Source: a virus. From it: DNA of 64,000 nucleotides. Shown in pieces: positions 636 through 56,906 of this stretch. Where the stretch lies: positions 1 through 64,000 of the IMG/VR virus record IMGVR_UViG_2617270923_000003. The stretch is one strand, 5' to 3'. Every line of letters starts with the position of its first letter. The stretch's first letter is position 1. The position numbers and the translations under genes are program-made. Below the pieces are notes generated by a model. It ran no database searches, was not told the origin of the DNA, and saw nothing but the letters and a program-made list of their open reading frames with translations.

Positions 636-950
636 CTATGTGCGGTCGTTATTGTTGACCGCGATCAAACCAGTCGCCCGCGCCGCGCCCAATATGTCGC
701 GCTTGATATTCTTGGTGTCGCGGTGATCACCCGCCGTCGATGCGCAGAACACCTTGCGGGATCCATTCGGTCCTCGAATGGTGATTTGCAGGTGGTGTCC
801 GGAGTGCTCGATTGTTGCGGCGGGGCAGATTGCTTGAGCGAGCCGCAATAGCTCGCGCTTTCGTTTTTGGACGCTCATAGGGTTAGAACCTCGCATAGTC
901 GGGATGGTCACGATAGAAAGGCTCCCCGCCAAGGACGCCTTCCATTTCAT
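636..950 (-). CDS. hypothetical protein; true start probably at the internal MSVQKRK Met near 878
   Basis: ORF in the minus-strand gene array. The longest form overlaps the upstream gene by 68 nt, so a later start is likely. Confidence 0.35.
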   Translation of the reverse strand: MKWKASLAGSLSIVTIPTMRGSNPMSVQKRKRELLRLAQAICPAATIEHSGHHLQITIRGPNGSRKVFCASTAGDHRDTKNIKRDILGAARATGLIAVNNNDRT

Positions 951-1188
951 TCACGACGCTGATAGCTGCCACAGCCTGCTCAGCGGCACGTTTTTGTCGA
1001 AGCCCCTCTTGACCGGCGACCTGGGTGAATAGGTATTCGGCCATTTCGCGCGTTTGGGCAGGCTGTTTGGATAGGTATTCGTGGGTTCGGGGCCGATAGC
1101 GCACCACGAGCCAACCTGTTTTCGCAGGATCGGGATCGCGGATGATGGAAACCTCAACGTCGCCGACCTTGATCCTCTTTCCGCTCAT
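883..1188 (-). CDS. hypothetical protein ending ...DYARF (member of the C-terminal aromatic-tail family)
   Basis: 101-aa ORF translationally coupled to its neighbours. Confidence 0.45.
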   Translation of the reverse strand: MSGKRIKVGDVEVSIIRDPDPAKTGWLVVRYRPRTHEYLSKQPAQTREMAEYLFTQVAGQEGLRQKRAAEQAVAAISVVNEMEGVLGGEPFYRDHPDYARF

Positions 1189-2202: not shown

Positions 2203-2907
2203 TCAGAACCCTCCATAAGCAGGGAGCGCCCGTAGGTGTTCGCTGCTGCTGCGCGCTTCCTCGATCTGACGCTCCTCTTCCAGCCGGCGCTGGCGTTCCA
2301 GCTCGGTAAGAACCGCCTTTCGTTCGGCAACCAGGCGCTTGTGCATGATCTCTGCCTTAGCAAGCGCCGTGGTCTTGTTCTTGACCTGCTCCTTGAAACC
2401 CTTGCGGCTGACGTAGAAGCTGCGGCTGGTGCCAGCCAGCGGGTTCGGATTGCGCGGATCGCGCCTGTCGACTTTCATGAGCGAGGCGTAAACCGTGCAG
2501 TCCGGGTGATCTGGATCCTCGAACTTACCCAACAGGTCGCCCTCGAAAACAACAGGCGCCCTAACCGGATTTTCGGTCCATAAGTTGTTGAAGGGGCTTT
2601 CACCAATAGCGATCTCGTTGAGAAAGTAGAACAGGTCGCCCGAGGCTTCATGTGTCCCTCGCGTCTTGGTCGCGGTCATCTTGAGTTCGCGCGAGGGGCT
2701 GCTGCGTCCCAATGCCAGCATGAGCGTTTCCGTCAGCATCGACTTGTTGTAACCGCGGCTGGGTGACGCCATAACGATGCTCAGTTCGCCCGGTCTCCAT
2801 CCCTTAAGGCTTTCTGCAAGGTCCGCCAGGTAGTCAGGGGTCGGAAGCTTTACGTCTTGAGCTTCAAGCTTCAGGCCGTCGAACTCGACAATGTATTGGC
2901 CGCTCAT
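2203..2907 (-). CDS. hypothetical protein (234 aa) ending ...LPAYGGF
   Basis: Long ORF; C-terminal coiled-coil/charged region; member of the aromatic C-tail family. Confidence 0.55.
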   Translation of the reverse strand: MSGQYIVEFDGLKLEAQDVKLPTPDYLADLAESLKGWRPGELSIVMASPSRGYNKSMLTETLMLALGRSSPSRELKMTATKTRGTHEASGDLFYFLNEIAIGESPFNNLWTENPVRAPVVFEGDLLGKFEDPDHPDCTVYASLMKVDRRDPRNPNPLAGTSRSFYVSRKGFKEQVKNKTTALAKAEIMHKRLVAERKAVLTELERQRRLEEERQIEEARSSSEHLRALPAYGGF

Positions 2908-24897: not shown

Positions 24898-25089
24898 TTA
24901 TGCAACGCCGAGGGCGGATGCGACAGCCCTGGCTAGATGTTCTTCGCACGCCTTGACCGCAGCTTCTTCTGCGGCCCTGCGAGAGGGGTAGGGACTAGAC
25001 CAGGGCGCACTTTCGTCGCCGGCCGGGTGACGGAAGCACCAGCCGCCCTGGCGCTCTGCCACGTCGAAGCTCATGGTGATGGTGCTCAT
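24898..25089 (-). CDS. hypothetical protein (63 aa)
   Basis: ATGA-coupled to the upstream gene; GAAGGACG RBS. Confidence 0.4.
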
Positions 25090-26006
25090 GCCGCGTCCTT
25101 CACGTATTCGCCGGCAAGCGTCTTGCGGAACTGGATCCAACCAGGTCCAAAATTGCCGCCCAGGTCCGGGTTCTCGAAGATCATCTTACCATTGCCCAGG
25201 TAGAGCTTTGATCCGCGGTCGGGGGTTGCCTGGTGTTCGGTCGGCGAGGCGTGCAGCGGTGATGATCCGACAAGCAGATCATACCGTTCCAGTTCGCGCT
25301 CGATCGAGGCATCGCCATCGAACGGAGCGTAGGAGATGCGGGCCGAACGAGCGACCGACAGCTTCTGCAGGACATCGAGGCTGTGGAACTTCTTCTCCTG
25401 GCGCGTGACGTAAGGCAGATGCCAATCGCCATGCAGGAGGGTCTGGTATTGCGCACCAGCCAGAGCCTCGCGCACCATAATCGCGAGGTCATGGAAGTGC
25501 GGCTCAGCATCGTCGTGATCGCGCAGATGCAGGAAGTTCGCCCACGAGGTCGAGGTGATCAACGTGTGCTTCCAGGTGAAGGGCGCAATCAGACGGTTGG
25601 CGACCTGCTTATGATATCCGGCCTCGCCAAACGCTTCTGCGAAGCCTGCGGCCGTCCTCGCCGCGTGGCGCCAAGCTTCCTCGCGATCAAGGTCGTTACA
25701 TTCCAGCTCCATCGGAATGAAGTCGGTCGGAATGCGGGTATTACATTCTTCTAAAGCCTGCATGCCGCGCTGGTTCTTGCCCCAATGCCACGGCACGAAC
25801 GGATCGTTGCGAACTTCTTCGACCATCGTCTTGATCGGAACCGCGCGCATCGAACGGGCGTTGCGCGAGAAGACCCGGTGCGTCATCACTTCGCCGTGGA
25901 TGATATCCGGATAGTGCAGGTGCATCGTGATCAGCGGCAGAGCCGTGGTGTCGGCCGGGCGAGACGCAAGGACGATCTTTGCGAACATTCGATCAAGACC
26001 CGACAT
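25086..26006 (-). CDS. ThyX-like flavin-dependent thymidylate synthase (tentative)
   Basis: Start MSGLDRMF at 26006 with GGAGG RBS. Contains a THRVFSRNARSMRA segment resembling the ThyX RHR..S....S.RY motif. Adjacent to dut. Confidence 0.45.
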   Translation of the reverse strand: MSGLDRMFAKIVLASRPADTTALPLITMHLHYPDIIHGEVMTHRVFSRNARSMRAVPIKTMVEEVRNDPFVPWHWGKNQRGMQALEECNTRIPTDFIPMELECNDLDREEAWRHAARTAAGFAEAFGEAGYHKQVANRLIAPFTWKHTLITSTSWANFLHLRDHDDAEPHFHDLAIMVREALAGAQYQTLLHGDWHLPYVTRQEKKFHSLDVLQKLSVARSARISYAPFDGDASIERELERYDLLVGSSPLHASPTEHQATPDRGSKLYLGNGKMIFENPDLGGNFGPGWIQFRKTLAGEYVKDAA

Positions 26007-26210: not shown

Positions 26211-26627
26211 TTAGAACTTTGCGAAATTCTCGGGCTGGTCCGATGCTTCGAGCGGATCGGGTTCGATGAAGACCTTGATCTTCACGCGGCTTGCGGCCTC
26301 GCCGATCGACTTTTCGAGCGCCACCTTGACGCCCTTCTCGGTCGCATCGAGAACCAGTTTCGGATAGTTGGTCCGGCTGCCATGCTTGTCGGCGAGGCGC
26401 TGGGCCAGGTTCTCCAGGAACTGATCGTCCTTGAGGAGCTGGTTGATGCGCTCGTCGGCGCGGGCGCGGACCTGGTAGCTCACGTCCTTCGAGCCACCGA
26501 TACCGTGCTCGTTGGCAAGAATGTTCTGGATCTGACCGGTCAGGAACCACTTGAGCGCGGCCTTGTCGTCCTGATGCAGCTTGTCGAAGAAAGCCTTTCC
26601 GCGCTTTTCGAGTTCGTCCGGAGTCAT
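26211..26627 (-). CDS. hypothetical protein (138 aa) ending ...NFAKF
   Basis: ORF downstream of the promoter cassette at 26638-26665. Confidence 0.5.
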   Translation of the reverse strand: MTPDELEKRGKAFFDKLHQDDKAALKWFLTGQIQNILANEHGIGGSKDVSYQVRARADERINQLLKDDQFLENLAQRLADKHGSRTNYPKLVLDATEKGVKVALEKSIGEAASRVKIKVFIEPDPLEASDQPENFAKF

Positions 26628-27686: not shown

Positions 27687-27711
27687 GGTGGGGCCGAAGC
27701 CCCACCTTTCT
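27685..27711. terminator. Rho-independent terminator, bidirectional (ggtggggccgaagccccacctttct)
   Basis: 8-bp GC stem with T-tract; sits between convergent genes. Confidence 0.65.
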
Positions 27712-27928
27712 AAAATTCAAGATATTCGACAAGCTGGTCATACCCACCAATAAGCACCCCATCGTGGAAGACCTGCGGAAAGGTCGTGTAACCGGCGTCC
27801 TTAAACCGCTGGACCTTCTCCGGCGTGTCGTGGTCGGTTACGGTGAAGTGCTCCTTGTTGCTCTTGAGAAGAGCCTTCGCGCGGACGCAGTAGTTGCAGC
27901 CCGGCCTCGTCATGATGTGATATGCCAT
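27710..27928 (-). CDS. nrdH: NrdH-like glutaredoxin
   Basis: 72 aa with a CNYC redox motif near the N-terminus; thioredoxin-fold length; downstream of nrdA. Confidence 0.75.
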   Translation of the reverse strand: MAYHIMTRPGCNYCVRAKALLKSNKEHFTVTDHDTPEKVQRFKDAGYTTFPQVFHDGVLIGGYDQLVEYLEF

Positions 27929-29629: not shown

Positions 29630-30598
29630 TTAGAAATTGTCGTCGTCGGCCTGATCCGCCTTCTGGTAGGCGGTCGGCTCGGAGTGGAAAAAGTCGACCT
29701 TGGCGGGCGCGAGCAGCCCTTCGGTCATCCAGAAGGTCTCGGCGCGCTCAGCCTCGGAGACCTCGAACATCGGCGTGTAGCCAATGCCTTCGAGCGACTC
29801 GTTGAGGCGCTGAGCGACGTAGGTCTTAAGGATCGAGGCGTTGAGCTTGGGCTGGTCGTAGTCGCCGAGCATCCAGTCGATCAGAGCGGCTTCAGCCTTG
29901 TAGGCTTCCTGGCACTCTTCCTTGATGCGGGCTTCCAGCTCGGCGTCGAACAGGTCCGGATATTCCACGCGCAGCGTATTGATGATCTTCATGCCGGCCT
30001 GGGCATGGAGCATCTCCTCGTTGCGGGTGTATTTCACCTGCTGGGCGGCGTCCTTGAAGCGGTTCTCGAAGCGGTTGAACCAGAGGACGATGTAGAACTG
30101 CGAGAAAAGGCTCACATTCTCCACGAACAGCGTGAACAGGATCAGGCTGTAGATGAACTGCTTCTTGTCGTCGTTGGCGAATGCCTTGTCCTTGTGCTTG
30201 GACAGGTAGCCGACACGGCCGGCGATTGCCGGCACGTTCATGTTTTCCTTAAACACGCCCTGCAGACCGAGCTTCTTGAGGAGCTTCTCATAGGCGTTAT
30301 TATGGATGACCTCGATGTAGCCCATCGTGATCCCGAGATCGGAGATAGAAGGATGAGGCAGAATGCGACCGAGTAGCGGCCAGAATTCCTTCACCTGAAT
30401 TTCGATCTGGGCGATCGCAGCGAGGCAGCGCTTGATGATTTCGCGCTCCTGGTCGGTCAGGCGGAGCTCGTAGTCGGTCACATCGCTGTCGAAGGTGAAC
30501 TTCTTGGCGGTCCAGAAGCCGTCCTGCATGGCTTCGATGAAGTCCTGAGCCCAAGGATAGAGGTCGGGGAGACGTTCGACCTGGCGTTCGAAAAGCAT
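29630..30598 (-). CDS. nrdB: ribonucleotide reductase class I small subunit
   Basis: 322 aa with the di-iron/tyrosyl radical helices (...EE..H...) and the C-terminal acidic-aromatic tail (DDDNF). Confidence 0.85.
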   Translation of the reverse strand: MLFERQVERLPDLYPWAQDFIEAMQDGFWTAKKFTFDSDVTDYELRLTDQEREIIKRCLAAIAQIEIQVKEFWPLLGRILPHPSISDLGITMGYIEVIHNNAYEKLLKKLGLQGVFKENMNVPAIAGRVGYLSKHKDKAFANDDKKQFIYSLILFTLFVENVSLFSQFYIVLWFNRFENRFKDAAQQVKYTRNEEMLHAQAGMKIINTLRVEYPDLFDAELEARIKEECQEAYKAEAALIDWMLGDYDQPKLNASILKTYVAQRLNESLEGIGYTPMFEVSEAERAETFWMTEGLLAPAKVDFFHSEPTAYQKADQADDDNF

Positions 30599-30703: not shown

Positions 30704-31276
30704 TCAGGCTGCCTGCGGGACCGACCGGAGAATGGCAAGCGTCTGCTGGAAGGAAGGCGTCCTGATGCCCGCTTCCATGATCGCAACCGCGTCAGCCAGG
30801 TGCTCGTTCTTCTTGACCGGAACCATGATGCCGCCCCGCTTCGTCAGGAGCCACGGTGCCTTCGGATACTTGCCGAACGCCCATTCGATCATTTCATCCT
30901 TGGATGCGGTCTTCGTGCCGACGGCGCCAAGCTTGGTTTCCGCAGGGGATACCTCGATACCCGGAATGGGGATGCCGGCATAGGTGCCGATCACGATACC
31001 GAAGCCGAGAACGGCGTTATAGTCCTGGCCGCCCGACGGCACTTCGTAGAAGACGGTCGTAACGCCCTTGAGGGCTGCGTGAACGCCAATGCGTAGCTCG
31101 GTTGCACGGGCCAGATTGTCGGACGACGCGCGAATATTCTTGACCTTCGACTTCTCCGTCTCAACCAAGGTCAGATCCTTGACTTCAAGGGCGAGCGTGT
31201 CGAGGTCGAGCCAGGCAGTCGCAATGCCGAAGTTGCGCAGAGAGCCGTCGAGGCCCGCGATGAGAATCTTGCCCAT
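30704..31276 (-). CDS. RuvC-like Holliday junction resolvase (tentative)
   Basis: N-terminal ILIAGLDGSLRNFGIA and C-terminal HLADAVAIMEAG resemble the RuvC catalytic Asp motifs. Confidence 0.55.
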   Translation of the reverse strand: MGKILIAGLDGSLRNFGIATAWLDLDTLALEVKDLTLVETEKSKVKNIRASSDNLARATELRIGVHAALKGVTTVFYEVPSGGQDYNAVLGFGIVIGTYAGIPIPGIEVSPAETKLGAVGTKTASKDEMIEWAFGKYPKAPWLLTKRGGIMVPVKKNEHLADAVAIMEAGIRTPSFQQTLAILRSVPQAA

Positions 31277-31599
31277 TAAAAGGCTCCATAATTCGGATTG
31301 AAGTTGTTGATCCGGGTTTTCAGATCGGCAATCTCTTGTTCAATGTCGGTCAGGTCAGGTGCGGGAGGAGGAGGCGGCAAGGCGGCAAGCTTAGCCTGCA
31401 GGTCAAAGAGCTGGTTCTGGAGCCGGGCAATATCAGGGTTACTAGTCGGATATCGATTGCGCTGAACGACATCAGCGACAACATTCGGGTCCAGGGCCGA
31501 GCGCGCCTGCAGCGCCACGATCATGTTCCCGAGAAACGAGACCTCGTGCGGCTCAAGTTCATAGGAGATCGTGCCATCGGTGGCATAGACGCTCCGCAT
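31276..31599 (-). CDS. hypothetical protein (107 aa) ending ...NYGAF
   Basis: TAATG-coupled to the RuvC-like gene; poly-Pro stretch. Confidence 0.45.
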   Translation of the reverse strand: MRSVYATDGTISYELEPHEVSFLGNMIVALQARSALDPNVVADVVQRNRYPTSNPDIARLQNQLFDLQAKLAALPPPPPAPDLTDIEQEIADLKTRINNFNPNYGAF

Positions 31600-32069
31600 C
31601 AGAATGCCCCGAACAGCTCGTTATTCTGCAGAGCCATTTCCGTCTGCTTCTTCTCAAGCTCGGCTTCGTTCGCCTTGGCGTTGAGGCGCTCGGCGACGAC
31701 GGAGTTGACGATGGTGTTGAAGTTCTCGCCTTCGACGCCGAAATGCTTGGCAACAGCCGCACCAATCAGCGGAAAGGTGAAGTCGACCTCCTTCGGGTTA
31801 AGCTCGGCCCACTTGTATTCCTGGGCGTCTTCCGGCGTCATGCCAAGGATGAGCTTGCCCTGGGTGCCGACATAGGCGTATTCGACGGCGAACAGCCAGC
31901 CGGCCATCAGGGTCTTCTTCTTGAAATTCCCGGCTGCGTATTTCACCGTCGCCATCGGGGTTCCATCGACCTCGAAGAACTCACCCTTGAGAGCGGCAAC
32001 AATCTCGTTGCCGACCTGTTCGAGGATCTTCTTGGTTTCGGGATGCTGATCGGCCTTGACCTTCGGCAT
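31599..32069 (-). CDS. hypothetical protein (156 aa) ending ...QNNELFGAF
   Basis: ORF downstream of the promoter cassette at 32084-32110. Confidence 0.5.
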   Translation of the reverse strand: MPKVKADQHPETKKILEQVGNEIVAALKGEFFEVDGTPMATVKYAAGNFKKKTLMAGWLFAVEYAYVGTQGKLILGMTPEDAQEYKWAELNPKEVDFTFPLIGAAVAKHFGVEGENFNTIVNSVVAERLNAKANEAELEKKQTEMALQNNELFGAF

Positions 32070-32598: not shown

Positions 32599-32807
32599 CC
32601 CATTTCTCCGATCTTCACGCCGAGCCAGACGGCTCCGCAGACTGCGCCGATGAGCCAGATCGCAATTCCGACGACCGGGACCAGGACGAAGGCTTCAAGC
32701 CCACCCTTGCGATTGAAGAACAACGTGAGCAGTCCGCCGATATAGCCAGCCAGAAAGACGCACACGATGTAGATTGCGGCTGCGCCGGTGAGTTCGAGCG
32801 GGGTCAT
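32595..32807 (-). CDS. small membrane protein (2 TM helices, 70 aa)
   Basis: Two hydrophobic spans; ATGA-coupled to the sbcC-like gene. Confidence 0.5.
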   Translation of the reverse strand: MTPLELTGAAAIYIVCVFLAGYIGGLLTLFFNRKGGLEAFVLVPVVGIAIWLIGAVCGAVWLGVKIGEMG

Positions 32808-34741
32808 GCTGCAAGCTCCGTGACGCGAGTGGTCTTGTTGGCGAGCTTCTCGACCAGGAGCACCTGCTTGATATGGTCGCGCAGCTCGTTATGGGAGACC
32901 ACGAAGACCGACCCACGTTCGCGTGCCTTTTCCTCCAGAATCTGCATGAGCCGTTCCAGGCCGGACGCATCGAGCGCGTCATCGATTTCGTCGCCGATGA
33001 AAAGGTCAATCGGCTTGGTCGCGCGGGTCGCCACAAGATCCTGCAGCGCGAGAGCTGTCGAGATCCTGACCTTGCGCTTTTCACCACCGGACAGACCCTT
33101 GAAGCTTTCACCGCCCGTCGCGTTGGTCACGTCGATGGTGAACTTCTCCTTTAAATTGCCCTTGGCGTCAGGCGTCAGGGTGTTCCAGGTCGCCTCAATA
33201 TTGCCGTCGGACAGGATCGCCAGGTATTTCGCCGTCTGCGAATTGAGGAACGGCGTCACGTCGTCAAGGATCGTGGCGCGTGCACCGGCAGGTCCGTAGA
33301 CCTTGACGGCCTCGGTTTCGAGCGCGACTTCCGCTTCCTCATCCTTGATCTTCGAGGCAAGCTCGTTGGTCTTGGCCTCAGCGTCGGCTAGCTCCTTGGT
33401 CAGACGGATGACGGTTGCCGCGTGCGGGTTCGCTTCCGCCTGAATTGCGACCAAGCGATCACGCCAAGTCTTGGCCGTGTTCGCAAGACTGACCTGCTTA
33501 CTCACCAGATCGTTGTAGGATGCAAGCTCACGTTCGAATGCAGAGCGCTGGGCAGCGACCGCGCTGATGTCAGTCATACCTGCTGCGAAAATGTCGCGAG
33601 CGGCCACAGCTTCGCTGTGAGCTTCTACCGCAGCCTCGTGATCAGCCTTCGCCTTCACGAGTTCCGCAGCCCTCTCATCGATACGAGCCTTCGCCGAATT
33701 GGTCGTGGCGCGCAGTTCATCTGCGGTCAGCGGGCGACCGCACTCCTTGCAGGGGCAGCCGAGCTGGTGCTGAATGCCGGCAAGTGCAGCTTCGGCCACC
33801 GAATGCTCGCGCGCAACCAAGTCGAACCTGTATGCGGTGTTGTTGACGGCCGTGTGAGCAGCGGCCACCTTGGCGTCATAGGTGCGTAATTCCGCCTGCT
33901 GCGTGCCCACGGCTGCGATCTTCGCATCGCAGTCGGCGATGGAAGCCTCGATCTTGCCCTTGTCGATCGCCTCGATCGATGCCTTGATCGTCTTGAGGTG
34001 CGGAATGATGGCCGCGATCTCATTCTTGGCCTCCGCCTCGCGGACCTTCATCTGGCCTTCCCAAGACCCAAGGGAACTCTTGGCGGAATGAAGCTGGGCA
34101 CGGAGAAAGCCTTCCTGGCTACTTGCCGTCATGTGCTCGGCGTTCGCCGCTTCAAGCTTCTTCTGGGCGGCGAGAAGACCCTTGCGGGCGATCTCATGTG
34201 CGCCTTCGAGCAGGGATGCGCCGGAAGCTTCCTCGATCAGAACCTTCAAGTTCTTGTCGGTCATGCCGGGGAGGTCGGGCATCTGTTCCTGCCCGGCGTA
34301 GATCGACGCCGCAAAAACTTCGAGGCTGGATCCGATAACCTTGTTGGCCTCAATCTGCGTCAGAGCGTCCTTGCCCTTCGTCAGGTCGGTTTCCTTGAAG
34401 CCGTCGAACTGCTTTAATGTGAAGGTGTTCTTGCCGGTCTTGTGCTTACGATAGCGCGTGGCCGTATAGGTCATCGTGCCGTCGATCACGACGGAGCGGA
34501 CGAAGCAGTCCTTCTTGGCATCGCGGTTGATCACGTCATCGCCGGAGACGCCGCGCGCGGTGGTGCCGAACCAGCACCAGCAAAGAGCATCGGGAATGGT
34601 CGACTTGCCGGCGCCATTGGAGTCAGCGGACGTGTCTGCCTGGTTGTCGCCCTGGATCAGGACGAGGCCGCGATCAGCCAGGTTCAGCTTGGCGTTGGTG
34701 ATGGCGAGGAAGTGCTGGATTTCGAGTTCGGGAAACTTCAC
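32804..34741 (-). CDS. SbcC/Rad50-like ATPase (T4 gp46-like)
   Basis: N-terminal Walker A (GAGKST), long coiled-coil with a CxxC hook (CPCKEC), C-terminal ABC signature (LSGGEKRKV) and Walker B/D-loop. Confidence 0.8.
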   Translation of the reverse strand: MKFPELEIQHFLAITNAKLNLADRGLVLIQGDNQADTSADSNGAGKSTIPDALCWCWFGTTARGVSGDDVINRDAKKDCFVRSVVIDGTMTYTATRYRKHKTGKNTFTLKQFDGFKETDLTKGKDALTQIEANKVIGSSLEVFAASIYAGQEQMPDLPGMTDKNLKVLIEEASGASLLEGAHEIARKGLLAAQKKLEAANAEHMTASSQEGFLRAQLHSAKSSLGSWEGQMKVREAEAKNEIAAIIPHLKTIKASIEAIDKGKIEASIADCDAKIAAVGTQQAELRTYDAKVAAAHTAVNNTAYRFDLVAREHSVAEAALAGIQHQLGCPCKECGRPLTADELRATTNSAKARIDERAAELVKAKADHEAAVEAHSEAVAARDIFAAGMTDISAVAAQRSAFERELASYNDLVSKQVSLANTAKTWRDRLVAIQAEANPHAATVIRLTKELADAEAKTNELASKIKDEEAEVALETEAVKVYGPAGARATILDDVTPFLNSQTAKYLAILSDGNIEATWNTLTPDAKGNLKEKFTIDVTNATGGESFKGLSGGEKRKVRISTALALQDLVATRATKPIDLFIGDEIDDALDASGLERLMQILEEKARERGSVFVVSHNELRDHIKQVLLVEKLANKTTRVTELAA

Positions 34742-35013
34742 GGGTCGCTCCTCGTGGTCTGCACCGCAATCGGCACCTGCTTGGTGCAGTTTTTACCGCA
34801 ACTCTCGGCGTGGAAGCCGGTCGTGGTGCCGGAGCAGTTGGAATAGTAGACGTATTCGCCGGCGTCCTTGAACCGATAGACCTTGCAGCCCTCGTATTCG
34901 AACATCTTGGAGACCGGCACGTTCGGATTGTCGCTCTGCCCCGTGGAGACGGGATCCTTGCCACATGCGGCGAGAAGGATCGCGGCGGAAAAGAGTGCGA
35001 GGATTTTCTTCAC
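34738..35013 (-). CDS. lipoprotein (lipobox LAAC; Cys-rich, 91 aa)
   Basis: Signal peptide MKKILALFSAAILLAAC. Located between the sbcD-like and sbcC-like genes. Confidence 0.5.
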   Translation of the reverse strand: MKKILALFSAAILLAACGKDPVSTGQSDNPNVPVSKMFEYEGCKVYRFKDAGEYVYYSNCSGTTTGFHAESCGKNCTKQVPIAVQTTRSDP

Positions 35014-35369
35014 GAACGCGCTCCCGCATTGATCGCGGCTGCCAGATTGCCGGATGCAGCAGCGCTCTGCGCGGCCGCCTTCCCGCTCGGTGCGCTCGTT
35101 GTCGCCAACGGCTTATTCTTCCCGCTCGGGACGGCGCCGCGGAACTCGGTCTTGGCCTTCTTGGCGCCGTGCGAACGCTGAGCTTCGGTCATGTAGTAGG
35201 GCTCGATGCGCCAGTTACCGAACTTCTTGTAGCTCTGGGCCGTCGAAAGCGGCAGGGCGTGCAGCGTCTGCGGATAGTCCATCTCGTATTCGCCGGTCTT
35301 TCGACCCTTTTCATCGAACTTGGACACGACCTGCTTGGTCGTGAAATGCACCGTGTAGAGCTGGGTCAT
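35010..35369 (-). CDS. hypothetical protein (119 aa) with C-terminal ...AAASGNLAAAINAGARS tail
   Basis: The tail is shared, at nucleotide level too, with the 55804..56385 product. Confidence 0.5.
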   Translation of the reverse strand: MTQLYTVHFTTKQVVSKFDEKGRKTGEYEMDYPQTLHALPLSTAQSYKKFGNWRIEPYYMTEAQRSHGAKKAKTEFRGAVPSGKNKPLATTSAPSGKAAAQSAAASGNLAAAINAGARS

Positions 35370-37548: not shown

Positions 37549-38667
37549 TTAGGCAGCTTCCTTCGTCTCTTCCGAGACGAGAGCTGCGAGTTCGACATCC
37601 GCAACAACAGGCGGCTTGTAGGCGGCCGGCAGCAGTGCGCGCAGCTTGGCAAAGCCAGTCGGACCTTCTGCTTCGATCTGACGAGCCAGATTCTCGCGGG
37701 CGATCTCCTTGCCTTCCCAAAAGACAAAGCCCTTCCGAACTTCCTTGCCATCCGGCTTGGTGGTCGGGAACAGCTTCTCTTCGTTCAGGAACTCGATCAG
37801 GCTGCGTTCTACGTCAAAGCGACCAGTGCCATCGGGCTGGAACATGAAGCGCCACTTGGCCTTGGCGAAGGGCCGAGCGACCTTGTTCTTTACGAACATG
37901 CCCGACACTTCCATACCGAGAACGTCACCGTTAGGGCCCTTGATCTGGGCGGCCGACAGCCACAGGCGCTGCGAGAAATAGAACTCAGGCGCGTCGCCGC
38001 CCGTAGTCTTGCGGGGATCACCGAACACGACGCCGATCTTCTTGCGCATCTGGTTCAAGAAGATGACCAGAACGTCATACTTTTCGGCAATCATCGCAAT
38101 AGCCGGGAAGTGGGCTGACGTTGCACGAGCCAGCGCCGTGTTGTCGTTCATGTTGCGCTCAGCCGCCTCACGAGCATTGCCCTTGGCGTCCTGCAGGACC
38201 GACTGCGGAACCATAGCAGCCAGACTGTCGAAGACCCACACAATAGGAGCGTCCTTGGCGATCAACTTCTTATCGCGGATCAAGGCGACGGTCTTATGGA
38301 AGGTATCGACAGACTGTTCGAAGGTTTCCGGCTTCTTATAGATGAAGATGCCGGGCGTGGTATCGAGACCGATCTTTTTCGCGACCGACGACATAAACGA
38401 GCGCTCATGATCCATAAACGCTGCGATGCCGCCTGCCTTCTGCGCTGCGGTCATCAATGCAGTCGCGATTGCAGTCTTGCCGGACGACGGCGGACCGGCG
38501 ATTTCGATCACGCGGCCGACAGGGCCACCGTTGTCCCAATTGGCGCTCGATGCGTTGTTGAGGGGCGGAAAGCCAGTATCGAGGAAGTGCTTAACGCTTG
38601 CCTCCGGGTCATTCGCGCCAATGACGCCAGCCAGCGCCTTCATGATATCTTCGGGCTTGCTCATGTT
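37549..38667 (-). CDS. uvsX: RecA-like recombinase (UvsX-like)
   Basis: Start MSKPEDIMKAL with AAGGAGAA RBS. Walker A GPPSSGKT, Walker B and L1/L2-like loops. Confidence 0.8.
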   Translation of the reverse strand, partial: NMSKPEDIMKALAGVIGANDPEASVKHFLDTGFPPLNNASSANWDNGGPVGRVIEIAGPPSSGKTAIATALMTAAQKAGGIAAFMDHERSFMSSVAKKIGLDTTPGIFIYKKPETFEQSVDTFHKTVALIRDKKLIAKDAPIVWVFDSLAAMVPQSVLQDAKGNAREAAERNMNDNTALARATSAHFPAIAMIAEKYDVLVIFLNQMRKKIGVVFGDPRKTTGGDAPEFYFSQRLWLSAAQIKGPNGDVLGMEVSGMFVKNKVARPFAKAKWRFMFQPDGTGRFDVERSLIEFLNEEKLFPTTKPDGKEVRKGFVFWEGKEIARENLARQIEAEGPTGFAKLRALLPAAYKPPVVADVELAALVSEETKEAA

Positions 38668-38683: not shown

Positions 38684-39634
38684 CTAAGCGGCAAGCGCCT
38701 GACGAGGCGCTCGGAATGCAGGAAAGACGGAGATCCAGTCGTCGAAGTCCTTGAGGATCGACTTGAAAAGCAGGATCTCGCAGAACTGACGAAACTTGTC
38801 GGCGTCGGGCGTGCCTTTATCGACCTCAAGCGCCTGGGGCGCGGGACGCGCCGTGGTGCGCAGATCCACAAGATCGATGTTGCGGGAGAAGGTGATCGCC
38901 TTGTTCTCGTCTTCGACCAGGTTGCGATACTTCTTCGGCACGCCCTTAAGATCGATAGACTTGTCGAGGATCACGCCATTGGTGAAGTTGGCGACGGAGC
39001 CATACTGCTTGATGAACTCGATCGCGCCCTTCTCGCCGATGCCACCCACGCCGGCCACGTTGTCGCCCTGGTCGCCGCACAGCGCCTTAACCTCGACGAA
39101 CTGACGCACGGTCTCGACACCGGTGAAATCCTGAAAGGTCTTCTGCGTGACGAGCCGGTCGTTGGCGAAATCCTTCCAGACGACACCAGGCCCGACGAGC
39201 TGAAGCCAGTCCTTGTCGCCTGTGAGCAGGATGATACGGCTGCCGGTCTTCGTGTAGCGGTCGGTCAGGATCGCCCCGAGGTCGTCAGCTTCCATGTTGA
39301 GCGACCAGACCTGGGGAATGCCGAGAAACCGGAGAGCCTTCTTGATATAGGGCACCTGCTTCTTGTAGGCGTCCTTCATCTCCTGCATCCGGATCTCGTT
39401 CTTCGTCTCCTTCCGGTCCCGGTTCTCCTTGTATTCGGCGAACATCAGCTTGCGCCAGGACACGCCGTCCCACAGAACGACCGGCTGGTAATCCTGAAAA
39501 CTTGCAACGTGCGACCGGACCCCCTTCAACAGATGATAGATCGCCTGGACCTGGGTCTCTCCGATCGAGAGCGGCTTGGAATTGTTGTAATAGTGACCGA
39601 GCGAGTTGCCGTCGATCAACGTGTAATTGGTCAT
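38684..39634 (-). CDS. rnh: 5'-3' exonuclease / flap endonuclease (T4 RNase H-like)
   Basis: PIN-like N-terminus (LIDGNSL; EADD; TGDKDWLQLV) and H3TH (LCGDQGDNVAGVGGIGEKGA). Confidence 0.8.
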   Translation of the reverse strand: MTNYTLIDGNSLGHYYNNSKPLSIGETQVQAIYHLLKGVRSHVASFQDYQPVVLWDGVSWRKLMFAEYKENRDRKETKNEIRMQEMKDAYKKQVPYIKKALRFLGIPQVWSLNMEADDLGAILTDRYTKTGSRIILLTGDKDWLQLVGPGVVWKDFANDRLVTQKTFQDFTGVETVRQFVEVKALCGDQGDNVAGVGGIGEKGAIEFIKQYGSVANFTNGVILDKSIDLKGVPKKYRNLVEDENKAITFSRNIDLVDLRTTARPAPQALEVDKGTPDADKFRQFCEILLFKSILKDFDDWISVFPAFRAPRQALAA

Positions 39635-40905: not shown

Positions 40906-41169
40906 TCAGGCTGCCTTGCGGGCAGGGCGGATCAGTCCAGAATTCTTCCAATTGTTCGACAGTTCGGCTGCATCAGCCGCTTCGAGACGTGCGGCTTCTG
41001 CCTTCTCGGCTGCCGCCTTGGCACGCTTGTCGGCCTTTTCAGCCCTTGCCGTGTGGAGCTTTTCGAGCGTATCGAGGTCGCGGACGACCTTGCTCTGACG
41101 GCTTACAACGCGGTCGATGGTCAGTTCGAGACCAAGAACCTTGCGCAGGTATGCGATAAACTGTTCCAT
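40906..41169 (-). CDS. hypothetical protein (87 aa)
   Basis: ORF downstream of the promoter cassette at 41197-41225. Confidence 0.45.
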   Translation of the reverse strand: MEQFIAYLRKVLGLELTIDRVVSRQSKVVRDLDTLEKLHTARAEKADKRAKAAAEKAEAARLEAADAAELSNNWKNSGLIRPARKAA

Positions 41170-41878: not shown

Positions 41879-42511
41879 TTAGAAAGCGCCGAAAATCTCG
41901 TTCTGCTGGTAGTGCTGTTCGCGCACCTCAGCCTCGGCCAGTTCTTTTTCGAGCTTGCGCTTGTGGTTCTCCATCTGGAAAGCAAGCTCGCGCACGTGGC
42001 GCATCTTCTCTTCACGCTGGAGTTCCCTCTCGGCCGCGATATCTGCCGGCGAGACGGCGATGCCATGCGAGGCCAGCCCGAGCTTCTTCTGCCATTCATC
42101 GATCGCGGCCAGACGTTCGCTTTCCTGCATGTCGTTCCACTCCTCGATCTCAAACTGTTCGAGCACCTTGTCGCCGTCGTTCATGACGGACCGCAGCATC
42201 GGGTGCCTACCCTTCGGCTGCCACCAGTCCGGTGCGGGCTGGTAGTAATACTGCGTCGGCGTCAGGGGCATTCCGCGCCATGTCATGAACGTGCCTAAGA
42301 CCCTGGCGTTTTCGTTAGGCAACCTCATCTTGCCGTAGGTCATAGGAACGGGCGTGGGATCAGCCGTGGGCTTGCTCTCGACCGGCTCTTCGCCCACAGC
42401 GGACAACGACTCCAAGATCCGCTGAAGGAAGCCCTTCTTGGGCTTCTCCAACGCGGTCAGGCTTGCAACATAAGTCGGACGCATGATCTCAATCCCTCCG
42501 TTCCAAATCAT
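41879..42511 (-). CDS. hypothetical protein (210 aa) ending ...QQNEIFGAF; ATGA-coupled downstream of dnaE
   Basis: ORF with a Trp-rich central region and a C-terminal coiled-coil. Confidence 0.5.
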   Translation of the reverse strand: MIWNGGIEIMRPTYVASLTALEKPKKGFLQRILESLSAVGEEPVESKPTADPTPVPMTYGKMRLPNENARVLGTFMTWRGMPLTPTQYYYQPAPDWWQPKGRHPMLRSVMNDGDKVLEQFEIEEWNDMQESERLAAIDEWQKKLGLASHGIAVSPADIAAERELQREEKMRHVRELAFQMENHKRKLEKELAEAEVREQHYQQNEIFGAF

Positions 42512-45500
42512 GACAGGCAGTCCGCGACGGCTGCGAACACCTGATTCATGTTTTCCTGCTTGTCCGGGTCGTGATAGATTTCACCCGGAGAGAAGCCGAT
42601 GATGATGTTGGCGTCATACTTCTTGGAGTAGATGACCTTGCCGGCCTGCTCTGACGCCTTACCCTTGAAGTCCGGGAAGAAGTGACGCACGGTCGTCGAG
42701 CCGAGGAGCACGATGACGGGCGGCTGCAACAATTCGATCTCCCGCTCCAGGTAGGGCTCGTAGGTCTTGATCTCGTCGGGCGTGACCTGCTTGCCGCGCT
42801 TCGGACGCTTGATGAGCGCCGTCCAATAGGCGTTGTGTCTATCGAGGGACGCCGTTTCGATCGCTTCGACCACTGCGTTATTCGAGATCGAGAAGCCCAT
42901 GATCCCGCCCGTGTCCTCCTCGTTGCCGGGGGCATCGGAGATGATCATGAAGTCGGCGCTCTTGCCGAAGAACGGCTTGACCGGATATCCGTCTGCAGTC
43001 GTGGCCTTGGGCCCATGCGCTGCGCGGTATTCGTCCACGAGCTCGCCAAGGGCTGCCTTCGTGTCCTTATCCTTGTTCAAGTCGTGGTCGACCGGCACAT
43101 GCGCGGCGATCAGGCCCGGCAGGAGTTCGATCTGGTCCTTGATGCGGCTCGGGTCGTTAGCAGGCGCCTGACCAGACTCAATGCGAGAGAAAGCACCCAC
43201 CAGGTCGAGCGCCTCCTGGACCCGCTTGTTACAGACGCGCTTCTCCACCCGAGACAGGAAATCGTTCTTATCGACAAACGGGCCGGCCTTGCGGGCTGCG
43301 AGGATCGCGTTCGTTGCCTTCTCGCTCAGACCCTTGATGCGCTGGAGCGGCATGACGAGGCGGACAGACGTTGCCATCTCGAAGCGGTTGGTCGAGATAT
43401 TGATGTCAGGCATCGAGACCTCGATCCCGAGCGCCTTTGCATCCCGGATGATACCCGTCAGCTTCTCTTCCTTCTGCACGGTCAGGGCTGCGGCGTAGAA
43501 CTCGGCCGGATAGTAGGTCTTGAGATACATCGACTGATAGGAGATCAGCGTGTATTCGACCGAGTGCGACTTGTTGAAGCCGTAGCCGGCGAAGCCTTCG
43601 ATCTTGTCGAACAGAGCGCCTGCCCAATCCTCGGTGCAGCCGATCGTGGCGACACAGCCGTCGCAGAACTTCTTCCGCTCCTTCTTCATTTCCTCCGGCA
43701 GCTTCTTGCCCATGATCTTGCGGAGCTTGTCAGCAGCGGCGCCGGAGTAGCCGGCGATCACCTGGGAGATCTTCATGACCTGCTCCTGGTAGACGATGAC
43801 GCCGAAGGTTTCTTCGAGCACCGGCTCCATCAGCGGGTGATCATATTCGATCTCCTCATTGCCCTGCTTGCGCAGATAGAAGCTATCCATCATCCCGGAC
43901 TCGATCGGGCCAGGACGATAGAGCGCGGTGCAAGCCGTGATATCTTCGAAGGTGATGACGCCAGTCGAGCCGAGCTCCTTCAAGAGCCGGCGCATACCTC
44001 CGGACTCGAACTGGAAGATGGCAGTCGTGTTCGCCTTGGCGAAGTTCGCCAGCACCTTCTCGTCATCGAGAGGAATGCGGTTCAAGTCGATGCGCTTGCC
44101 CGTGTTCTCGCGGATATATTCGAGCGCCAGGGTCATATGGTCGAGCGTGTTCAGGCCGAGCACGTCCATCTTGACCAGGCCCTGGTCCTCGACGATGCGC
44201 TTGTCCCAGCACACGACGTTGCCTTCCTTGCGCCGTTCCACGACCGCGCGATCCACAATGTCTACACCGGCGACAATGACACCGCCTGCGTGCTGACCGA
44301 AGTTGCGGATCGTTCCTTCCAGGCGCTCCATCATCGGATAGTGCGTCGGATAGTTGTTGGCGAAGTCGTCGATCTCCTTGACCTGCTTGCGAGCCTCGGG
44401 GAGGGGAACGTTCTGCCCGTGCAGCTTCGGCACGAACTTGGAGACGGAGAAGTCCTTTTCGGGGATGAGCGTCACGCGGCCGACATCGCGGATCGCGGAT
44501 GCGGAGCCGAGCGTGCCATAGTTATTGACGCCTGCGACACGCGCTGCGCCATACTTCTTGGTCAGATATTCGAAGACCTCGTGCCGGCGCTCGGACATAA
44601 AATCGAGGTCGGCGTCGGGCAAGTCGATACGTTCGGGATTGATGAAGCGTTCGAACAGGAGCCCGAAGCGGATCGGGTCGCACTCGGTAATGCCCATCAG
44701 ATACGCGACGAGGGATCCGCCCACGGAACCACGACCAGGGCCAACCATGATGCCGGACTTCTTGGCAAACTGCACCACGTCCTGCACGAGCAGGAAGTAA
44801 CCCGAGAAATTGAGGCGCTTGAGGGTTTCGAGTTCATAGGCGAGGCGAGGCTTATAAACCTCGACCAGCTCCTTTGCGCCCGGCTGATGACCGAAGATCG
44901 GCGCGTCGAAGCGCTCCTTCCAGCCCTTCTTGCACTCCTCGACCACGGCGGCGAACTCGTTCGGCGCCATAACCGGCAGTGACACGTCTGCCTTCTTCCA
45001 TTCATATTCGACCAGGTCGACTAGCTCAGCCGTATTGAGCAGCCCCTGCTTGAAGCAATCAGCGACATACGAAGCAGCCATGCCGCGCTTGACCAGGTGG
45101 GCTACCGCCTTCTTCATTTCGCCGACGAGCTCGCCCGAGCCCATGATGTGCATATCGCGGTTGAAACGCGACTTGAACCAGCCATCGGTGATCTTGTTGT
45201 TGTCGGAGATCGCCGTCATAATTTCCTGGGTGTCGGCTTCGCCCTGGCCGTAGAAGGCCGGACGCACGACGATCGGCTTGATGTTCTGCCGGGCGAACTC
45301 GCCAAGCGCGATCTGATTAAGCCGACCGTAATAGGGCGTGCTAACCGGGATCAGCGGCGCATACAGATGCGTCACGCGGGTTTCCAGCTCATCCACGATC
45401 TTCGTGTATTCGGGGTGCTCCAGGATGCTGTGAGCGTCACCGAGGACGATAGCGAGGTCATCCGGCGCGATCTTCGCCAGCTCCTTGTAAAGATCCTCGA

Positions 45501-52418: not shown

Positions 52419-52586
52419 GGGCTTAAACGGCTGAAGGCTCCAGGACGGCAATCCCAGAGCCTTCGAATTAGATAGTGACCGTCGGGACACCAGAGCCATT
52501 TAGCAACTCTGTTATCCCGAATCACCGCTGATTTGTCAACGACCTTTTGGGGTCGATGGCGAAGCTTTGCCCGGAAACGAGGGATT

Positions 52587-55803: not shown

Positions 55804-56385
55804 TTACGCTGCATTAATCGCCGCTGCGAGATTGCCGGATGCGGCAGCATCGCCAACGGAGTTGGTCTGGGTGTTGGTGTTGTCGGCCTTCGGAGCAGCC
55901 TTGCGCGACTTGCGCGGCGTCGGGCTCTCGGTGAAGTTGCGGGAATAAGAAGGGCCGTCGTCGCTCGGAAGCGGTGCAGCACCAATAGCCTTTCCGATGC
56001 GCTCGGAAGCGGTCTCGATCTTGAGCCGTTCTGCATCCGAGACGCCCGGAAACTCTCGATAGTAGGACTCGACGACCATCGGGCGGTGGATGCGTTCCAG
56101 AACGTCCTTACGCAGCTTGCCCACGACCGGCGTGTCGGATGCGTAGTCATCCTGCCAGCTTCGACCGTTGGTGCGGATCTTGTTGACGATCGCCGCGGCC
56201 GCGCACTTGCCGGCCCGCATGCAAACCTGGCAGCCCTTGCGGACCTCGGGACGCTCGCCGCGCCAGAACATCTCCCGCAGCTTGAAGCACTGCGAAATCT
56301 TGGTCGTGGTCTCAAATACCGGGCAAACAAACGCGAACTGATTGCGCGGGTCGTCCAGTTTCACGTATTCGTTCTTGGTAGACAT
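55804..56385 (-). CDS. Cys-rich hypothetical protein (possible Zn-binding DNA-end sensor) with C-terminal ...AAASGNLAAAINAA tail
   Basis: N-terminal C..C....C...C cluster (CPVF...CFK...CQVCMRAGKC), a Lys/Pro/Thr-rich linker, and a tail shared with the 35010..35369 product. Confidence 0.5.
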   Translation of the reverse strand: MSTKNEYVKLDDPRNQFAFVCPVFETTTKISQCFKLREMFWRGERPEVRKGCQVCMRAGKCAAAAIVNKIRTNGRSWQDDYASDTPVVGKLRKDVLERIHRPMVVESYYREFPGVSDAERLKIETASERIGKAIGAAPLPSDDGPSYSRNFTESPTPRKSRKAAPKADNTNTQTNSVGDAAASGNLAAAINAA

Positions 56386-56906
56386 CAGAACCTCCCGTAG
56401 AGATCGTTTTCGGAGTAAGCCTTTTCAGCCGCTTCCTTTTCGGCTGCGAGCTGCGCGGCGCGAACGGCTGCGGGGTCGACCTTGCGCGAGGAGTCGAGCT
56501 TGTTGCCGTCTTCATCCCACTGCGGGCTATCCAGTTCACGCATACCGCTCGTATCGAAGCCGGGATCGAGGTGCTGGACTGCTGTCGCGCCCATCTTGTT
56601 GAAGTAGACATTGCCCACGGCCTTCACGATTTCCGAGGGGTCTTTCGCACTTGCCTCGCGCGCCGGCCCGTTCTGGCGATAGCCCTTACGGGTCTTCTCG
56701 GTCTCCTTCTTGTCGAAGGCACGCTGCGCCTTGACCGGGCTGTCGAACATTTCGATCTTCATTTCACCGATCGCGCCGGTCTTGCCCCAGCGGTTAATGA
56801 CGACGCAGTTCCCGTTCGCAGCCTGGATCAGGTGCAGATGATAGGACTTCGTGCCGCCCTGGTGATCGTAGGAGATGGTCTTCGATGTAATCGGGTAGAC
56901 GGACAT
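56385..56906 (-). CDS. WGR-domain protein (ending ...DLYGRF)
   Basis: Start MSVYPITSK with AGAGGAAAGCT RBS. KSYHLHLIQ...VINRWGKTGAIGEMKIEMFDSPVKAQRAFDKKETEKTRKGY matches the PARP-associated WGR consensus (kfY.l.l...rWGRiG.........A...F..k...Kt.kGY). Confidence 0.7.
   Translation of the reverse strand: MSVYPITSKTISYDHQGGTKSYHLHLIQAANGNCVVINRWGKTGAIGEMKIEMFDSPVKAQRAFDKKETEKTRKGYRQNGPAREASAKDPSEIVKAVGNVYFNKMGATAVQHLDPGFDTSGMRELDSPQWDEDGNKLDSSRKVDPAAVRAAQLAAEKEAAEKAYSENDLYGRF

Follow-up and report, generated by a model that had tools for sequence, protein, structure and literature searches.

Seven proteins encoded in a 64,000-nucleotide stretch of viral DNA (positions 1 to 64,000 of IMG/VR record IMGVR_UViG_2617270923_000003; hereafter the window) end in variants of one short aromatic peptide. 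Our analyses show that these tails are instances of a single portable and strictly C-terminal short linear motif that is under purifying selection at the level of the peptide. The tail is very probably a recognition or docking tag that is read by one common receptor, the pocket of which would differ between host lineages. A preliminary description of the window had proposed that a shared C-terminal docking peptide connects diverse proteins to one partner, and this idea is strongly supported by the conservation of the tails, the excess of synonymous changes in their codons and the strict terminality of the motif. Further support comes from the disordered and exposed tip of the tail, from its presence in ~25 unrelated families and from a concerted switch from Phe to Trp in one host lineage. 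All seven tails of the original set were confirmed exactly, and their open reading frames (ORFs) all lie on the minus strand; the motif itself, however, proved to be longer and far more widespread than these seven proteins.

The only recognisable domain among the seven carriers in Pfam and PHROG searches is that of a WGR-domain protein of 173 aa (56385..56906; PF05406, E=1.9e-13). Its gene lies between those for primase and for a protein with four invariant cysteines (hereafter Cys4 protein) followed by DNA ligase, its tail ...AYSENDLYGRF is encoded at 56388-56417, and its stop codon (56385-56387) overlaps the ATG of the next gene. The remaining six carriers are orphans. One of 210 aa (41879..42511; tail ...HYQQNEIFGAF at 41882-41911) is translationally coupled to the end of dnaE, has no coupled gene downstream and matched nothing in Pfam and PHROG searches. 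Two others form a tandem, namely a protein of 156 aa encoded upstream of a RuvC-like gene (31599..32069; tail ...LQNNELFGAF at 31602-31631), which gave a marginal CBM65_1 match (25.1 bits at a cut-off of 25), and a protein of 107 aa (31276..31599; tail ...NNFNPNYGAF at 31279-31308). The gene for the latter has no ortholog among the relatives and is specific to this phage. A protein of 138 aa (26211..26627; tail ...QPENFAKF at 26214-26243) is encoded between the glutaredoxin and ThyX genes, and two proteins of 234 aa (2203..2907; tail ...LRALPAYGGF at 2206-2235) and 101 aa (883..1188; tail ...FYRDHPDYARF at 886-915) belong to the early-gene region. When the tails were removed, the best all-versus-all BLASTP match among the seven carriers had an E-value of 0.27, which agrees with the earlier view that they are unrelated.

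The number of such tails is far above chance. With a model of 80 genes for the window, [FYW][GA]xF was found at 7 C-termini against 0.041 expected (binomial P=3e-14), the expectation being derived from the internal frequency of this pattern (9 of 17,504 4-mers). When the window and four relatives were read in all six frames (~3,100 ORFs), every match was located in real coding-strand genes with a high GC content at third codon positions, and spurious ORFs gave zero matches. A sequence logo built from 60 non-redundant tails yielded the extended consensus Y(-9)-x-x-[N/H](-6)-[P/D/E](-5)-x-[F/Y/W](-3)-G(-2)-x-[F/W](0)-COOH, a motif of ~10 residues in which the logo has [N/L] at -4, F at 0 and, most often, R or A at -1, usually preceded by an E/K/A-rich, helix-like stretch. 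The family-weighted information content was highest at -9, -6, -5, -3, -2 and 0. Even the tail of the phage-specific 107-aa protein fits this consensus (N-P-N-Y-G-A-F). In 186,569 aa the extended motif occurred 21 times at the terminus and 0 times internally. An AlphaFold prediction for the WGR carrier, based on a 13-sequence alignment, showed a confident WGR fold (residues 1-115) and an exposed helix (145-166) that ends at the conserved Tyr and is followed by a disordered heptapeptide, the last 7 residues having pLDDT values below 50. In this model the carrier has the anatomy of a protein with a short linear docking motif. Indeed, the tails are short, disordered, better conserved than their flanks, fixed in position and convergent on unrelated proteins, as is characteristic of C-terminal docking tags. 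Tail peptides with a free C-terminus include AEKAYSENDLYGRF-COOH and KAYETNPNFGRF-COOH.

The window has a GC content of 58% and nearly all of its genes lie on the minus strand. It shares ~79% DNA identity with the Rhizobium phages RHph_X66, B1VFA and V1VFA-S; RHEph10, RHph_Y2_11 and N1_15 are more remote relatives. The genomes of these relatives are ~115-122 kb in size (~110-120 kb for the family overall), and they encode DnaE, a DnaB-like helicase, primase, ligase, a gp32-like single-stranded DNA-binding protein (SSB), a RecA-like protein and SbcCD-like proteins, together with ribonucleotide reductase (RNR), ThyX, CobS/CobT, a sigma factor, rIIA/B, RepC and ParAB. Circular plasmids of ~116-119 kb that belong to the same family are present in Sinorhizobium (pLM21S1), Rhizobium, Pararhizobium, Shinella and Methylobacterium (NZ_KM659098, NZ_CP140813, NZ_CP132310, NZ_CP090351). 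Since phage genomes and circular plasmids are members of one family, we refer to it as a phage-plasmid family; its elements, with RepC and ParA/ParB, occur as virions and also, in several genera of the Hyphomicrobiales, as non-mobilizable plasmids of ~117 kb. A plus-strand ORF of the window (52533-53714) is probably the RepC homolog to judge from its position and opposite orientation.

Across these relatives the tail is retained in orthologs of only 31-60% identity. All 13 WGR homologs in the database (50-98% identity) end in Y-x-x-N-x-x-[YF]-G-R-F despite a variable preceding linker, and the tail persists as NDLYGRF, NPRFGMF, NPKFGRF or NENWGTW in the WGR orthologs of X66, B1VFA, RHEph10, Y2_11, Shinella and Methylobacterium, with NDLYGRF and NPRFGMF facing each other at 31-34% identity. 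The orthologs of the 210-aa protein (44-46% identity) end in IPNFGAF or NPTFGAF and use different codons for Gly, Ala and Phe. For the 156-aa protein, X66 and B1VFA have an identical tail with four synonymous changes (TTC GGG GCA TTC versus TTT GGA GCC TTT), the orthologs in RHEph10 and Y2_11 (31% identity) end in TNPNFGRF, and the positional equivalent in Methylobacterium ends in ADNDDWGTW. Likewise, the B1VFA ortholog of the 138-aa protein (62% identity) ends in APDFGKF, the X66 and B1VFA orthologs of the 234-aa protein (33% identity overall) in AHPAFGGF, and the orthologs of the 101-aa protein (54% identity) in HYHDHPFFARF. In pairs of orthologs, 23% of the tail codons differ synonymously and 31% non-synonymously, as compared to 15% and 59% in the adjacent 20-codon linker (Fisher P=3e-7, with codon pairs that are not fully independent).

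Many of the tailed genes overlap the next gene, which raises the possibility that the tails are the by-product of a nucleotide constraint, i.e. the Shine-Dalgarno sequence and spacer of the coupled gene (GGAGG-TTC-TGATG), or a recombination or boundary sequence, translated as G-[AGR]-F. Several tails in the window indeed read GGAGG, GGGAGG or GGAG followed by TTC and TGATG, and at 2206-2235 (GGA GGG), 31279-31308, 31602-31631, 56388-56417 and 886-915 the Gly-x codons also provide the overlapping next gene with its Shine-Dalgarno sequence; for the 138-aa protein, the Shine-Dalgarno sequence of the next gene sits past the stop codon and outside the tail. Among 31 distinct phage tails, an ATG or GTG start overlaps the stop codon in 21, and 15 contain a Shine-Dalgarno-like 4-mer; tailed genes are also often arranged in tandem. 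Because tail codons double as Shine-Dalgarno sequences, 23 of 27 Gly(-2) codons are GGA or GGG, as compared to 16% for bulk genes. However, 10 of the 31 phage tails are followed by no coupled start, and the tails of a subfamily of serine recombinases described below keep the motif with no coupled downstream gene and with ordinary GGC or GGT codons for Gly in 5 of 9 cases. Moreover, no Shine-Dalgarno sequence could specify the residues Y(-9), N/H(-6), P(-5), aromatic(-3) or F(0), these residues stay fixed while their synonymous codons vary freely (TTC/TTT, TAT/TAC, AAC/AAT, CCN), and non-coding frames gave zero matches. The uncoupled tails, the recombinase tails, the conserved positions outside the Shine-Dalgarno sequence and the synonymous variation thus refute a nucleotide by-product as the sole explanation, and it is exceedingly improbable as the origin of the tails. 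The Shine-Dalgarno role of the Gly-x codons is instead a secondary overlay in about two thirds of the phage genes, an overlap that shapes codon choice without accounting for the peptide.

The frequent stop/start overlaps, together with the strict C-terminal position and a length of ~10 residues, roughly that of a sensor in the ribosomal exit tunnel, would also suit a nascent peptide that acts in the ribosome on termination and re-initiation, tuning expression of the next gene without binding a cellular receptor. We consider this very unlikely as well: one third of the phage tails and all recombinase tails have no coupled gene downstream, all three stop codons occur after the tails, and the concerted switch from Phe to Trp is more readily explained by a protein pocket than by the ribosome tunnel, which is conserved.

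The distribution of the motif extends well beyond the window. We scanned IMG/VR, the GTDB species genomes and JGI metagenomes with degenerate DNA patterns for the tail, and the ORF-terminal matches fell into four groups. The first comprises the same phage-plasmid family (Rhizobiaceae, Phyllobacterium and syntenic IMG/VR contigs of 42-64% GC; the family reaches 67% in the Methylobacterium plasmid), the second contigs of Rhodobacteraceae (e.g. a Loktanella metagenome-assembled genome with three tailed ORFs within 2 kb), the third a subfamily of small serine recombinases, and the fourth isolated cases that are probably due to chance. None of the low-GC matches was ORF-terminal, as expected for a handful of chance matches. 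The 153 carriers of the strict motif form 27 clusters that are unrelated by BLAST, ~25 of which are credible. In the complete genomes of X66 and RHEph10, 7 of 148 and 7 of 162 genes are tailed, and all 14 tails sit outside the virion and lysis modules.

The tailed recombinases (subfamily P0014-P0081, ~249 aa, 41-100% identity) have a Pfam Resolvase domain; besides WGR, this was the only annotation that Pfam and PHROGs gave for any carrier. In a large protein database they are found in Rhizobium, Sinorhizobium, Neorhizobium, Mesorhizobium, Pleomorphomonas and Ancylobacter (L028:4897-5646, L074:10001-10750, L077:8001-8753, L078:8001-8762 and L079:8001-8750) and nearly always end in Y-x-x-[HN]-P-x-[FY]-G-x-F. 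Their closest relatives, of ~223 aa, do not have the tail-bearing appendix of ~25 residues. The recombinases are mobility genes of variable defence islands, which carry BREX, type III CRISPR with a prophage, DarTG/GmrSD or SNF2/methylase systems. In two loci (L028, L079) the island adjoins tRNA-Gln, and in two a DUF3102 protein precedes it. The islands have neither a conserved neighbouring gene nor a protein in common with the phage, and a receptor encoded in the islands themselves was rejected on these grounds. One further match concerns a cellular protein, a metagenomic glycyl-tRNA synthetase alpha subunit (GlyQ) from a normal glyQ-glyS operon (L063:1748-2749), which has an extension of ~25 aa with YYKNNPDFGRF at its end. 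The tail is absent from all of its 120 closest orthologs, and we reject this singleton as a sign of cellular origin; it reflects either chance or a one-off acquisition. All in all, the tag appears to be restricted to mobile elements of Alphaproteobacteria. As to how tails spread, a 52-aa ORF of B1VFA (L003:31576-31734) that lies behind the tailed post-DnaE gene consists of barely more than a linker and a tail (...DPYADNPAFGAF). It resembles a tail duplication or insertion and hints at a route by which tails may pass from gene to gene.

An indication of a single receptor comes from the Methylobacterium plasmid NZ_CP090351, where 3 of 3 tails read W-G-x-W (HNENWGTW, ADNDDWGTW and DGFAWGSW), while the tails of Rhizobiaceae and Rhodobacterales elements read [F/Y]-G-x-F. 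A concerted switch on unrelated proteins of one genome is what would be expected of co-adaptation to one receptor. Because the tagged recombinase islands share nothing with the phage, this receptor is most simply thought of as host-encoded, and on balance we lean slightly towards that possibility.

Several known classes of terminal peptides were compared with the tag. PDB searches with the tail peptides gave no matches, no Pfam or PHROG family matches the motif, and searches of the accessible literature for motif strings and for the concept found no description of it. The preliminary description had noted that two tails are preceded by Q-x-x-[LI]-F, reminiscent of beta-clamp-binding pentapeptides. 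This is correct for the 210-aa protein (41879-42511; QNEIF), but the 156-aa protein (31599-32069) has Q-x-x-x-L-F, and the suggested resemblance is not supported, as neither Q is conserved (orthologs have IPNF, NPTF and NPNF). Clamp motifs (QL[SD]LF, QLxLxL) and the PCNA PIP box resemble the tag in being short, often terminal peptides on replication and repair proteins, where they bind a hub, but the Q that defines them and their pair of neighbouring hydrophobic residues are either missing from the tails or not conserved; the logo contains no Q and places a Gly between the aromatic residues. Unlike the tails, the phage DnaE does have a separate canonical clamp-binding-like pentapeptide, Q-I-E-L-L (residues 914-918; 43120..43134, minus strand), which stands outside the tag family and is kept as Q[IL]ELL, QRELI or LIELI in five DnaE orthologs. 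This pentapeptide illustrates the appearance of clamp ligands in this system and bears no likeness to the tails.

In the SSB tip (DDDIPF-COOH), a disordered linker likewise leads to a short peptide, and a pocket recognises its terminal Phe together with the free carboxylate. However, SSB is one carrier with many readers, whereas the tag has many carriers and presumably one reader, and the tails contain no acidic run, being of the form N/H-P-x-aromatic-G-x-F with Arg or Ala often at -1. A protein ending in ...DDDNF, considered as an SSB hub, turned out to be the RNR beta subunit, and the true gp32-like SSB (Pfam gp32; 39752-40786, minus strand) has a different conserved tail, an amphipathic and acidic L-A-E-L-D-N-L-V that reads VLADLDSI or LAELDGLIV in relatives. 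The RNR beta subunit (29630-30598, minus strand; ...DDDNF, with ADDEF in RHEph10) and the adjacent glutaredoxin (27710-27928, minus strand; ...EYLEF, with ...GDDDF or EDDDF in the RHEph10 group) have a style of acidic, Phe-terminated tail in common, which suggests that both may dock on the RNR alpha subunit.

Other classes were excluded on similar grounds. The HbYX tails that activate the proteasome or HslV (hydrophobic-Tyr-X-COOH) do not fit a penultimate R, A, G, S, T or M and an aromatic residue at -3; ligands of PDZ domains and outer membrane protein beta-signals, with an aromatic residue at -2 and Phe at 0 on exported proteins, do not fit the aromatic residue at -3, the invariant Gly at -2 and carriers of cytoplasmic type (WGR, recombinase). 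The C-terminal 'GWW' peptide of RNase E binds PNPase in Alphaproteobacteria (PMC3376730); like the tag, it is an aromatic C-terminal docking peptide specific to this class, with Gly beside the aromatic residues, and it occupies a hydrophobic surface pocket. Unlike the tag, GWW stops short of the C-terminal end, with its tryptophans side by side and RR behind them, belongs to a single protein and has no Y...N-P context, while the tails place aromatic-G-x-aromatic at the extreme end. Finally, a phage HslV-family peptidase was rejected as receptor: this assignment has no Pfam support, and its homologs occur on many conjugative Rhizobium plasmids, with no match on the Methylobacterium plasmids. 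In X66, the gene for this so-called HslV-family/S14 peptidase, a type frequent on conjugative Rhizobium plasmids, adjoins a gene (L081:8996-9463) for a protein with the Acb2/Tad1 hairpin domain of the anti-CBASS/anti-Thoeris sponge family (Pfam E=2e-10).

A receptor could still be a host hub of replication or repair, for instance SSB, RecA or the beta sliding clamp with which the phage DnaE works, to which the tag would recruit accessory factors and recombinases and thereby bring them to replicating DNA. Several carrier genes lie beside dnaE, primase, ligase and RuvC-like genes, one carrier has a WGR domain of the nick-sensing type, and recombinases act on DNA; short terminal peptides are the classic ligands of clamp and SSB hubs, and clamp binding is known for some transposases. 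This reading is nonetheless improbable. Apart from the missing Q and hydrophobic pair, the unconserved Q-x-x-[LI]-F and the separate pentapeptide that DnaE has at the expected position, the tails are not acidic as SSB tips are, many carriers belong to the early 'host-takeover' gene cluster, and a universal hub would leave both the restriction to Alphaproteobacteria and the switch from Phe to Trp unexplained.

Somewhat more attractive, though still on the unlikely side, is a hub that is encoded by the phage and conserved across the phage-plasmid family. In T4, the C-terminal tails of gp43, gp33 and gp55 bind the sliding clamp gp45, and in T7 the acidic, Phe-terminated tails of gp2.5 and gp4 dock on gp5; in both phages, much as proposed for the tag, a similar hydrophobic or aromatic C-terminus of unrelated phage proteins plugs into one hub, and the terminal aromatic residue is critical. 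Candidates for such a hub are the Cys4 protein and/or the DNA ligase, CobS/CobT, the gp32-like SSB and the helicase/primase, and the recombinases of the islands would then respond only on phage infection, in the manner of a satellite or sensor. The Cys4 protein (193 aa; 55804-56385, minus strand) has four invariant cysteines in a zinc-ribbon-like arrangement and is always encoded between the tailed genes and ligase. The slot between primase and Cys4 protein/ligase is filled by one to three tailed genes with non-homologous bodies in every lineage examined. Elements of the Rhizobium, Shinella and Methylobacterium types have WGR at this place, and L012, L108 and L109 have other proteins there. 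In addition, the residue at -1 and the type of aromatic residue tend to be uniform per genome, as would be expected for co-evolution with an element-encoded partner, and CobS/CobT (MoxR-AAA+/VWA) is a CbbQ/CbbO-like pair of remodellers. Nevertheless, the tag lacks the acidic run of the T7 tails and the L/F-rich clamp motif, no phage clamp is detectable here, and the tag is present on recombinases of non-phage islands in many genera, apparently only of Alphaproteobacteria, that have no protein in common with the phage. Other tailed genes are far from the slot, some of them in the early region and some close to the RuvC-like gene, a clamp-like or peptide-binding domain was not detected in the conserved unknowns, and the uniformity per genome is loose, since the WGR tail ends in GRF while most others of the same genome end in GAF. 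For the Cys4 protein, a remote homology search found no Pfam or PDB homolog. It shares a second C-terminal peptide, AA-x-[ST]-G-[DN]-[LM]-[AS]-A-A-[IL]-N ('TGDLAAAIN'), with an unrelated 119-aa protein encoded between the SbcD-like and SbcC-like genes (35010-35369, minus strand), for which likewise no Pfam or PDB homolog was found.

Among the candidate hubs of the preliminary description, a protease or chaperone is in our view the most likely class. Most specifically, we tentatively favour the AAA+ unfoldase/protease machinery of the host, with an SspB-type ClpXP adaptor or the N-domain of ClpX or ClpA as receptor, because the core of the tail resembles the adaptor-binding half of the ssrA tag and because AA-COOH ends are enriched in the same genomes. 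The first seven residues of ssrA constitute the adaptor-binding half, and SspB of E. coli reads AAND..Y. The ssrA tags of S. meliloti and Caulobacter are (A)ANDNYAEARLAA (PMC10117765 supplement) and AANDNFAEEFAVAA (PMC9393093), respectively. Positions -8 to -2 of the tail (A-[A/D]-N-[P/D]-[N/L]-[F/Y]-[G/A]) align with AANDN[Y/F]A of the alphaproteobacterial tags, and some tails read AANDLYG in this stretch. Scored with a family-weighted position-specific scoring matrix of the tails in the register -8 to -2, the ssrA heptamers rank in the top 2.4e-4 of proteome 7-mers, a match that is partial and post hoc; the scores in every other register are negative, and there is no match for the E. coli tag, in which the Tyr spacing differs.

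The second observation concerns other proteins of the window. In E. coli, ssrA-like ...AA tags are a uniquely potent class of C-terminal degrons (PMC10862746). AA-COOH ends, which in tags of the ssrA type constitute the half that ClpX binds, were found in 15 of the 80 window proteins against ~1 expected (P ~1e-12), namely those encoded at 1-564, 2904-3137, 7464-8909, 10732-12186, 14586-15152, 18819-21191, 25086-26006, 30704-31276, 32804-34741, 37549-38664, 38684-39634, 40906-41169, 54268-55794, 55804-56385 and 57029-58129. This set includes rIIA, ligase, RecA-like, 5'-3' exonuclease, SbcC-like, RuvC-like, epsilon-exonuclease, ThyX and NadV proteins. The ends are kept in orthologs, also distant ones (KEAA in rIIA, KEAA or REAA in ligase, ELAA, EMAA or EVAA in the SbcC-like protein, ALAA or ELAA in the 5'-3' exonuclease), and often adjoin non-coding spacers. 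Such ends are present on ~19% of the non-structural proteins; they make up 19% of the genes of X66, 14% of those of RHEph10 and 20% of those in a 50-kb stretch of the Methylobacterium plasmid (76 annotated genes), against 1 of ~65 virion and lysis genes of X66 and RHEph10 combined and 2 of 57 host-island genes. Overlaps of the type GCA-TGA between stop and start partly explain 5 of the 15 ends, but not the rest; a caveat on the enrichment is that many host GlyQ orthologs likewise end in AA. The AA-COOH ends resemble ClpX degrons of the ssrA/CtrA type. The aromatic tails do not have the ssrA-like ClpX degron (C-motif 1, ...[L/V/A]-A-A-COOH), ending as they do in F or W.

According to this proposal, positions -8 to -2 of the tail would mimic that part of the alphaproteobacterial ssrA tag, its first half, which the adaptor binds, and so tether the carrier to the unfoldase. 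The outcome might be an adaptor-dependent turnover or remodelling of the carrier, comparable to that of MuA, lambda O and P1 RepA, or else the delivery of whatever the variable body domain binds. MuA with ClpX, lambda O with ClpXP and P1 RepA with ClpA are the classic examples of recombination and phage replication proteins that are directed to an unfoldase by a C-terminal tag. The tag also has features in common with the ssrA-SspB-ClpXP system, including the XB tether of SspB and the engineered 'DAS' tags: it is portable and strictly C-terminal, and the order of body, flexible stalk and terminal peptide is that of an adaptor tether. It differs by ending in G-x-F-COOH instead of LAA-COOH, by an extra conserved Tyr at -9, and by being gene-encoded on native proteins, while ssrA is added by trans-translation; tmRNA was not found in the host loci examined, which contained tRNA-Gln only.

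A number of points weigh against an ssrA-like role of the tail. The likeness is one of ~5 of 7 positions, was noticed post hoc and owes most of its strength to N(-6) and the aromatic residue at -3; the commonest residue is Pro and not Asp at -5, and Gly and not Ala at -2. It is not obvious why binding of the SspB type should need a free C-terminus, Tyr(-9) or an invariant Phe at the end, and we know of no ClpX pore degron with a terminal Phe. In E. coli, the three residues past the putative adaptor site would be too short for simultaneous binding to adaptor and pore. The constant presence of tailed genes in the slot beside the phage Cys4 protein and ligase would fit a phage-encoded partner, and it is not obvious what advantage proteolytic tagging of replication-associated proteins would bring.

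If the unfoldase reading is extended to both kinds of ends, the non-virion proteome might be wired to the ssrA-recognition machinery of the host by a 'split' mimicry of the tag, a speculative and rather unlikely scenario. Here ~5% of the proteins would carry the adaptor-binding half, i.e. the aromatic tail, and ~15-20% the ClpX-binding half, i.e. AA-COOH. The aromatic-tailed orphans would then be either adaptor-dependent substrates or modular adaptors, similar to proteolysis-targeting chimaeras (PROTACs), with a body that binds the target and a tail that plugs into SspB-ClpXP. In that event, host proteolysis would remodel, time or silence the element and the recombinases of the defence islands or, alternatively, would be redirected against host proteins.

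Among the neighbouring genes, that for the phage DnaE (42508-45873, minus strand) encodes a fusion of PHP, polymerase, finger and HhH domains, followed by Q-I-E-L-L (914-918) and a C-terminal UDG-superfamily domain (Pfam UDG, 969-1104); the usual OB/tau-binding end is missing.

Shared C-terminal docking and recognition peptides are known in kind, as exemplified by the T4 clamp tails, the SSB tip and degrons. The present motif, its set of carriers, its confinement to mobile elements of Alphaproteobacteria and its receptor, however, appear not to have been described. Replisomes, proteases and chaperones organise many clients by means of shared terminal docking peptides, and a new tag of this kind defines both a list of clients and a missing receptor. 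As a portable peptide of ~10 residues, the tag may serve engineering in Rhizobium, Agrobacterium or Caulobacter. The identity of the receptor would give a functional context to ~25 otherwise unannotatable orphan families and to the defence-island recombinases at the same time, and it could reveal a route of host takeover or regulated proteolysis that is specific to Alphaproteobacteria.

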